Shown here piece after piece: positions 25,237-25,333 of a stretch of 64,000 nt of DNA. Position numbers and translations under genes: made by a program. Below the pieces are notes generated by a model, which was not told the origin of the DNA, searched no databases, and worked only from the letters and a program-made list of their open reading frames with translations. Each line of letters starts with the position of its first letter. Position 1 is the stretch's first letter. Source of the stretch: Escherichia coli (GTDB taxonomy: Bacteria; Pseudomonadota; Gammaproteobacteria; Enterobacterales; Enterobacteriaceae); the NCBI RefSeq assembly GCF_001677475.2, contig NZ_CP015229.1, one strand, 5' to 3'.

Positions 25237-25333
25237 GGAAATTTGCACTCTGGCCTAACCCGTTAATATTTCAGCAAAGTGCAAATTTGCGTTCTGTAGC
25301 TGGTGGCTGGCAGAATGTAAATTTACATTCTGG
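25237..25333. repeat. three dyad repeats, consensus TGYAAATTTRCAYTCTGG
   Basis: 25237-25253, 25279-25296, 25311-25333 (the last a 22-bp perfect palindrome CAGAATGTAAATTTACATTCTG); lies between convergent genes. Confidence 0.5.

Follow-up and report, generated by a model that had tools for sequence, protein, structure and literature searches.

Three dyads in a convergent gap as probable copies of a PICI-private, oriented repeat unit

Phage-inducible chromosomal islands (PICIs) carry virulence and anti-phage genes between Escherichia coli strains. Three dyads that lie between two convergent genes of one such island are very probably copies of an oriented repeat unit that is private to PICIs and is found at the end of an operon and at the site of accessory cargo. 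A covariance model of this unit, R1, was built from 35 units and searched against both strands of 52 loci (370 kb); it identified 127 units, and all 127 are on the strand of the gene p93 and downstream of it. The related loci, which are given L numbers below, were gathered via p93 and comprise 80 viral-contig loci and several annotated E. coli regions. The PICI literature examined (PMC6092414, PMC6739421, bioRxiv 10.1101/2022.09.08.507074) neither describes the repeat family nor offers an explanation for the exchange of cargo between the packaging module and attR. Precisely this cargo position is taken up by a repeat scaffold that is structured and oriented, and mosaic breakpoints and changes in unit number coincide with it.

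Three dyads between convergent genes

The window (the whole stretch of DNA analysed, 64 kb in length) carries an 11-kb PICI of the EcCICFT073 type that is inserted at a tRNA-Pro gene between yejM and yejO (Table 1). The left end of the island encodes, in this order, an integrase, an AlpA-type regulator and a primase, followed by the origin; next come a lambda gpE-like capsid gene, a gpD-like decoration gene, a 127-aa Xis/AlpA-like protein and cosN. After cosN follow an 87-bp inverted repeat, a Nu1-type small terminase gene (TerS), p93, the dyads, p99 on the opposite strand and a PerC-family gene. The cos site, cos1, precedes the TerS-like gene and is located 1.05 kb upstream of the dyads, and the 87-bp inverted repeat adjoining it is likely to be a cosB specific to this island; the same inverted repeat gave spurious matches to microRNA precursors in Rfam.

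Table 1. Coordinates of the features of the island and of the convergent gap in the window
Feature	Position	Strand	Sequence or remark
tRNA-Pro	15540-15616		PICI insertion site
att cores, 17 bp	15602-15618 and 26597-26613		CTCTCGTGCCGACCAAA
Primase gene	19410-21215		
Replication origin	21230-21450		nine TGTTCACC iterons in two inverted sets around an A/T-rich core, directly after the primase gene
cos1	24172-24183	+	perfect lambda cosN GGGCGGCGACCT; 35/40 bases identical to the lambda left end
Inverted repeat, 87 bp	24209-24295		GGTGG-rich arm and CACCA-rich arm; adjoins cosN, upstream of the TerS-like gene
TerS, Nu1-type, 180 aa	24317-24859		phrog_57, E 9e-53
p93, 93 aa	24933-25214	+	phrog_1561; last conserved gene of the PICI packaging operon
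Repeat unit 1	25208-25251	+	R1, 29.5 bits, E 2e-7
Dyad 1	25231-25252		CATAATGGAAATTTGCACTCTG; degenerate in the window; core of repeat unit 1
Repeat unit 2	25252-25306	+	R1, 48.1 bits, E 5e-13
Dyad 2	25275-25296		CAAAGTGCAAATTTGCGTTCTG; core of repeat unit 2
Dyad 3	25311-25332	.	CAGAATGTAAATTTACATTCTG; perfect 22-bp palindrome; anchor-less unit core; p99 stop codon 6 bp away
p99, 99 aa	25338-25637	-	orphan; predicted winged helix
PerC-family gene	25681-26052	+	divergent from p99
Palindrome right of perC	26077-26095	.	GACTATCTGAAAGATAGTC; compare AACCGACTATCTTTCAGATAGTCAC in L018, L027 and L087

Several features of the island stand apart from the dyads. The island TerS is full-length where EcCICFT073 has the shorter RppA; it is 35% identical to a CFT073 prophage TerS, its N-terminal DNA-binding part has diverged, and a PDB sequence search with it gave no match to Nu1 or RppC. 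A second perfect cosN, inverted and 76 bp upstream of the p93 start, is present in L008, L009, L018, L021, L023 and other loci, and corresponds to the site known as 'cos2' in EcCICFT073. What is left of it in the window is degenerate (GGGGCGGCGGTT, 24858-24869, minus strand); inverted cos sites thus flank the TerS or Rpp gene in the relatives and not here. The origin sequence TGTTCACC, which we take to be the type I iteron of phage P4, occurs 11 times in the window versus 1.9 times expected. Perfect matches to the IHF core consensus are found at 15660-15672 (plus strand, about 45 bp inside attL) and at 26567-26579 (minus strand, about 20 bp inside attR), and they are likely to be the real attP IHF sites around the 17-bp core.

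The gap that houses the dyads is 123 bp long and extends between the stop codons of p93 (plus strand, 25212-25214) and p99 (minus strand, 25338-25340). A repeat search returned the dyads as one family of direct repeats of 24 nt with 75-83% identity and a spacing of 44 and 36 bp; allowing for up to three mismatches, CAGAATGYAAATTTRCATTCTG matches exactly these three dyads in 64 kb, and zero sites in 100 dinucleotide-preserving shuffles. A previous sequence-only reading had pointed out these sites, described the third as a perfect 22-bp palindrome, placed all three between convergent 3' ends and concluded that they are not ordinary promoter operators. Each of these statements holds: the sites are real by the search above, the third is a 100% palindrome, the flanking ORFs end at 25214 (plus) and 25338 (minus), and the gap brings together two 3' ends and contains no promoter-like site. 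The consensus that had been proposed for the sites needs correction at two points, since the third core position of copy 1 is a G rather than C or T (relatives have a C there) and copy 2 terminates in CGTTCTGT rather than in CAYTCTGG.

Copy 3 is the only one that folds well on its own, with a hairpin of -10.5 kcal/mol (z = -5.6) and a folding energy of about -10 kcal/mol on each strand. Copies 1 and 2 (-2.0 and -4.3 kcal/mol, respectively) fold no better than shuffles, and among the three copies of the window the shared sequence exceeds the preserved pairing. The location of the dyads between the two 3' ends, the stability of copy 3 on both strands, and some other unit types in which a minus-strand hairpin is followed by a T-rich tail would suit Rho-independent terminators of the classical, bidirectional type that serve both p99 and the p93 operon, but we consider this very unlikely. 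The terminator cluster that had been considered from the sequence finds no support on closer analysis: none of the three dyads is followed by a U-tract on either strand, nothing in 25215-25337 passes a terminator scan, scans of two other arrays do not rise above shuffles, and copies 1 and 2 are too weak. A search of Rfam 15 returned no match in 25200-25340 at E values up to 1. The prophage sRNAs AgvB and Pas were considered and dropped, as Rfam includes them and as their genes are neighbours of Q and the lysis genes in lambdoid prophages.

The dyads could also be thought of as packaging or segregation sites, i.e. as R elements of a cosB, as an ori/crr of the P4 type or as a partition centromere. 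The island has a lambda-type cos and a Nu1-type TerS, and the IHF-like site between dyads 1 and 2 recalls the R3-I1-R2 part of lambda cosB (R3-I1-R2-R1). Unlike the lambda elements, however, the dyads are not beside cosN but separated from it by two genes, they do not co-vary with TerS, and L005-L007 encode a TerS and a 127-aa protein that are 99-100% identical to those of the window, yet lack the dyads; furthermore, it is the inverted repeat adjoining cosN that is the candidate cosB. An ori/crr is contradicted by the iterons, nine of which are located in the origin and none near 25200-25340. The sopC locus of F consists of tandem units each of which includes an inverted repeat, and like sopC, or P1 parS with IHF, the PICI array has tandem units of about 43-54 bp with an inverted repeat and possibly IHF. 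In contrast to plasmid centromeres, whose repeats share one binding sequence, the palindromes differ from unit to unit, and the island has no partition ATPase or centromere-binding gene (neither its ORFs nor the RefSeq annotations of related islands include a ParA/ParB-type gene). The suggestion that the sites form a packaging or partition array for an HTH protein of the island is thereby undermined, as the same TerS and 127-aa protein occur without dyads, dyad and p99 are not linked, and ParA/ParB are missing; in our estimate a role in packaging or segregation is improbable in the extreme.

Architecture, distribution and conservation of the repeat unit

The unit, 44-54 bp in length, consists of an anchor, (G/C)GGTAAC-N3-YTGAT, which leads into an A/T-rich stretch, an A/T-centred palindrome with variable arms, and a G-rich tail. 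Units were aligned on the conserved string TAAC-N3-YTGA, i.e. independently of any hairpin, and the resulting alignment is nearly gap-free. The core consensus of IHF is WATCAR-N4-TTR (WATCAANNNNTTR), and the anchor string TAAC-N3-YTGAT matches its reverse complement. The palindrome starts 21-24 nt past the TAA of the anchor, is 12-25 bp long (e.g. CCTCAATTTGAGG, GCGCAAAATTGCGC and CAGAATGTAAATTTACATTCTG) and has arms that differ between units, while the tail (GTCGGCGCGG or GGTAGCTGGTGG) resembles the last ~15 nt of p93 and in some units contains a Chi site. Units are arranged head to tail in a single orientation, from the p93 stop toward attR, with accessory genes inside or after the string.

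In the window, the anchor of unit 1 overlaps the p93 stop codon (GCGGTAACTTGCTGAACTTAAAG) and has at least three mismatches to the IHF consensus; in this unit TGGAAATTTGCA replaces the TGCAAATTTGCA of the relatives, and dyad 1 has lost pairing in comparison with them. The anchor of unit 2 (TAACCCGTTAATA, 25256-25268) is IHF-consensus-like with one mismatch, and the G-rich tail of this unit includes the Chi sequence GCTGGTGG at 25299-25306. Chi sites are enriched in the island as a whole, with 11 in its 11 kb versus 15 in 53 kb of flanking chromosome; one is located between dyads 2 and 3, the array of L086 has three in tandem, and a minus-strand Chi near the right end (26444 in the window) is conserved in many islands.

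Conservation in related islands had been proposed as a check when the sites were first described, and this comparison was decisive, as it exposed the repeat family. No unit was found outside p93-downstream regions, neither in the 52 loci nor elsewhere in the window, where R1 scores in 25208-25306 only. The first unit overlaps the p93 stop codon in most loci, though not in L075, in which ~1.2 kb separate the p93 stop from the array, and an island can have up to six units (L059 and L086). The prototype EcCICFT073 (NC_004431.1) has cos1, rppA, the inverted cos2, a p93 homologue and three units, followed by attR. Units occur in classical (Rpp), TerS-type and capsid-forming PICIs alike. With a two-unit query that represents one unit type, matches were obtained in 1054 of 5426 complete E. 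coli genomes, at one to seven places each, and among the matches listed for it 28 of 30 have no annotated feature, the other two overlapping a hypothetical protein. The region made up of the gap and p99 has a match in 63 of the 5426 genomes. Exact dyad 3 was found in 10 IMG/VR contigs of 5-13.5 kb, all of them PICI-sized elements, and the exact dyad in none of 100,044 species-representative genomes. At the same place and on a shared scaffold, the majority of the remaining islands with p93 have different short palindromes, such as GCGCAAAATTGCGC, CCTCAATTTGAGG, CTCCTCAATTTTGAGGAG, CGGCTCAAAATTGAGCCG, CAGCCAACGGCTG, CCCCCATTGGGGG and TTCGCCAGCGGCGAA.

Palindrome and anchor are both conserved across the family. 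A perfect stem of at least 5 bp is present in the 28 nt after the anchor in 84% of 64 distinct units and in 10% of shuffles, and 37 distinct palindromes are found at a fixed offset from the anchor. For the stated helix of seven pairs, 71.5% of cells pair versus 59% in shuffles; the covariation score is 0.269 versus 0.137, none of 500 shuffles reaches 0.269, and slid registers score lower. About two-thirds of the distinct units retain an inner CAA..TTG, and it is the outer arms that vary. The anchor matches YAANNNNTTGATW perfectly in 30 of 64 distinct units and with one mismatch in 16 more; its variable positions fall mostly on the N4 of the IHF consensus, the first of them nearly always being a C. 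RNAalifold detected no consensus helix on the raw unit alignment, because this alignment mixes two registers, and therefore the stated structure, the covariance model and a register-free stem test were used instead. Structured RNA was one of the possibilities raised by the sequence-only reading, and a palindrome that persists while its arms change would agree with it. However, stem mismatches comprise four G-U and eight A-C, i.e. there is no excess of G-U on either strand, and hence they give no sign of selection at the RNA level; the symmetric arms usually approach the centre to 0-2 nt, a geometry that fits a DNA dyad no less than an RNA hairpin. The palindrome types may also have separate origins, in which case the apparent covariation would reflect repeated recruitment rather than compensatory change.

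A sceptical reading of the same data holds that the repeats have no function: they would be either a selfish mini-repeat or decaying scars left by successive rounds of illegitimate or homologous recombination, in which alternative 3' ends were stacked behind p93. The unit tails do copy the last ~15 nt of p93, unit number and order vary freely, copy 1 of the window has lost the pairing seen in its relatives, and the family is confined to a narrow lineage. On the other hand, palindromes are far more frequent than chance predicts, the IHF-like anchor is kept, orientation and offset are strict across many island types, and dyad 3 is invariant, which makes a lack of function unlikely in our view. 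Should the units be inert after all, a false lead (operators, cosB, centromere) has still been removed.

The closest parallel to the PICI units is provided by REP/BIME elements, in particular BIME-1 (RIP/RIB). Both are short extragenic palindromes that occur in tandem clusters at the 3' ends of transcription units, and both are unannotated and have no settled function. Like BIME-1, the PICI units keep their hairpin potential while the arms vary, are variable in copy number and have an IHF consensus between palindromes, which in the PICI units is a consensus match only. To our knowledge, the PICI units have no similarity to the REP consensus (~35-40 bp). The PICI palindromes are shorter than REP and A/T-centred; the units all have one orientation, whereas in REP elements Y units alternate with Z units; their distribution is restricted to PICIs, with one to seven places per genome, instead of being dispersed over the chromosome; and no RAYT-type transposase is linked to them.

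The neighbouring genes p93, p99 and perC

p93 belongs to a narrow family, with 38 representatives at 50% identity, and has no match among 50,697 phage records, and is hence satellite-specific. The AF2 model of p93 is helical with a pLDDT of 69.5, a value at which a Foldseek search is meaningless, and no fold match was obtained. Members of the p93 family (A4; P0158, P0140) that share as little as 45% identity overall still have an almost unchanged C-terminal tail, Y(Q/H)WKKPERLRR, and P0158 couples this tail to a different N-terminus; the 3' end of the gene therefore behaves like a module that recombines on its own, and it overlaps unit 1.

The p99 family has 17 clusters. The predicted winged helix of p99 has a pLDDT of 78, and Foldseek returns weak but consistent matches to winged-helix DNA binders (RTP, Fur/PerR, DnaD-N). 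A scan of genome contigs for relatives of p99 gave 81 pattern matches, none of which was confirmed, and PDB sequence searches with TerS, p99 and p93 returned nothing meaningful. The PerC homologue is annotated with 100 aa in RefSeq, corresponding to a start at 25750, and NCBIfam adds nothing beyond a weak ANR match for PerC. p99 and PerC form an accessory cassette that sits within the repeat array. In EDL933, mutation of 'hypothetical gene 1792' has been reported to lower cf-PICI transfer.

Dyad 3 is identical in sequence in every related context found and is perfectly conserved while its flanks and p99 differ by 8-20%; its invariance and its adjacency to p99 would also fit a site for a sequence-specific protein. 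The dyads might accordingly be an array of operators or binding sites for p99 or PerC, with one dimer per dyad acting e.g. as a roadblock where the p99 gene ends or in the silencing of read-through that comes from the packaging operon. The predicted fold of p99 agrees with such a role, as does the invariant, perfect dyad 6 bp from the p99 stop, which accompanies p99 in 14 of 16 p99 loci examined. The association is incomplete in both directions, however: L086 and L087 have the dyad but no p99 (likewise L015, with a variant of the dyad), and L088 and L089 have p99 but no dyad. The sites are also at 3' ends and not at a promoter, copies 1 and 2 belong to a unit class that is present in islands without p99, and a confident model of p99 came from only one of the five AF2 runs. 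A near-perfect 32-bp palindrome between the divergent starts of p99 and perC (25647-25678; CTTATTGTGGGACAGT/ACTGTCATACAATAAG) is the more natural operator and a better candidate for p99 than the dyads at the 3' ends. We consider binding of the dyads by p99 or PerC to be quite unlikely, and we know of no spacing among E. coli operators and related sites (TyrR, LacI/PurR family, ArgR, Lrp, Fur, NsrR, dif/Xer) that fits the dyad. Overall, the array is probably not a dedicated operator array, nor a cosB, an origin or a centromere.

Mosaicism and possible function of the array

Mosaic boundaries between related islands coincide with the array. Relatives such as L005 and L007 are homologous to the window as far as 25218, four bases beyond the stop codon of p93, and not thereafter; L001 and L023 share only the segment from 24861 to 26052-26096, in which p93, the array and the p99-perC cassette are included. 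Among islands that have this p99 cassette in common, the differences consist of whole units, with one, two or three others before dyad 3, and the junctions of unit gain and loss fall in the tail GTAGCTGGTGG, which contains Chi. L084 and L085 have units on both sides of p99-perC. The segment at 26077-26095, right of perC in the window, has its counterpart inside the array in L018, L027 and L087, which places the accessory cassette inside the array and suggests that p99-perC interrupts it.

The array may be a BIME-like boundary and a recombination joint that holds accessory cargo, a combined functional reading that we prefer to its rivals and regard as evenly balanced between right and wrong. 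IHF would bend the anchors of the units, at candidate sites that are defined by consensus only; the palindromes would form stem-loops at the ends of both converging transcripts, at least in the case of copy 3; and the repeated, co-oriented tails would serve as short homologies for recombination between islands, which would add or remove units and swap the cargo at the right end. As in the accessory or defence hotspots of satellites and PICIs, variable cargo (p99-perC in this island, other genes elsewhere) lies between the packaging module and attR; the PICI papers examined (PMC6092414, PMC6739421, bioRxiv 10.1101/2022.09.08.507074) include neither the repeat scaffold nor a mechanism for it. 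If the units bind IHF or act as joints, they would help to predict or engineer where synthetic PICIs take up their cargo, would mark the right ends of PICIs by a simple sequence and would explain island mosaicism in part.

A bolder proposal is that of a dedicated platform for cargo exchange, in which selection has placed IHF-phased, co-oriented units with Chi or Chi-like tails behind the packaging operon, and recombination driven by RecBCD swaps accessory or defence cassettes between satellites, co-resident or incoming, at precisely this position; in a variant of it, p93 would recognise palindromes centred on CAA(W)nTTG in packaging or transfer. We judge this proposal to be distinctly unlikely, but if true, such a platform would be a recombinase-free counterpart of the integron for phage satellites.

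The surroundings of the array show some further features in the window and in individual islands. A (CTGG)11 tetranucleotide microsatellite, possibly prone to slippage, occupies 26166-26209 in the non-coding stretch from perC to attR. In L033, from ~5325 onward, a transposase-like ORF (MSRKNQRYSKEFKAEAV...) begins soon after the palindrome of the first unit (TTCGCCAGCGGCGAAC, followed by TGAGG...); the ORF resembles an IS3-family transposase, and this is the one case of an insertion at a unit. Four GTGAC repeats with a 10-bp phase (GTGACATACCGTGACGGAGAGTGACACACAGTGAC) are found right after p93 or the array in L005 (5290-5335) and in L061-L063, L078, L081 and L083, and they may be arm-type sites of an integrase or excisionase. 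Finally, TGAATAATCATTATGATTAC, which resembles a Fur box, precedes a plus-strand ORF (MTEGGNSPVV...) after the array in L009 (5335-5355), L014 (5505-5525) and many other loci.
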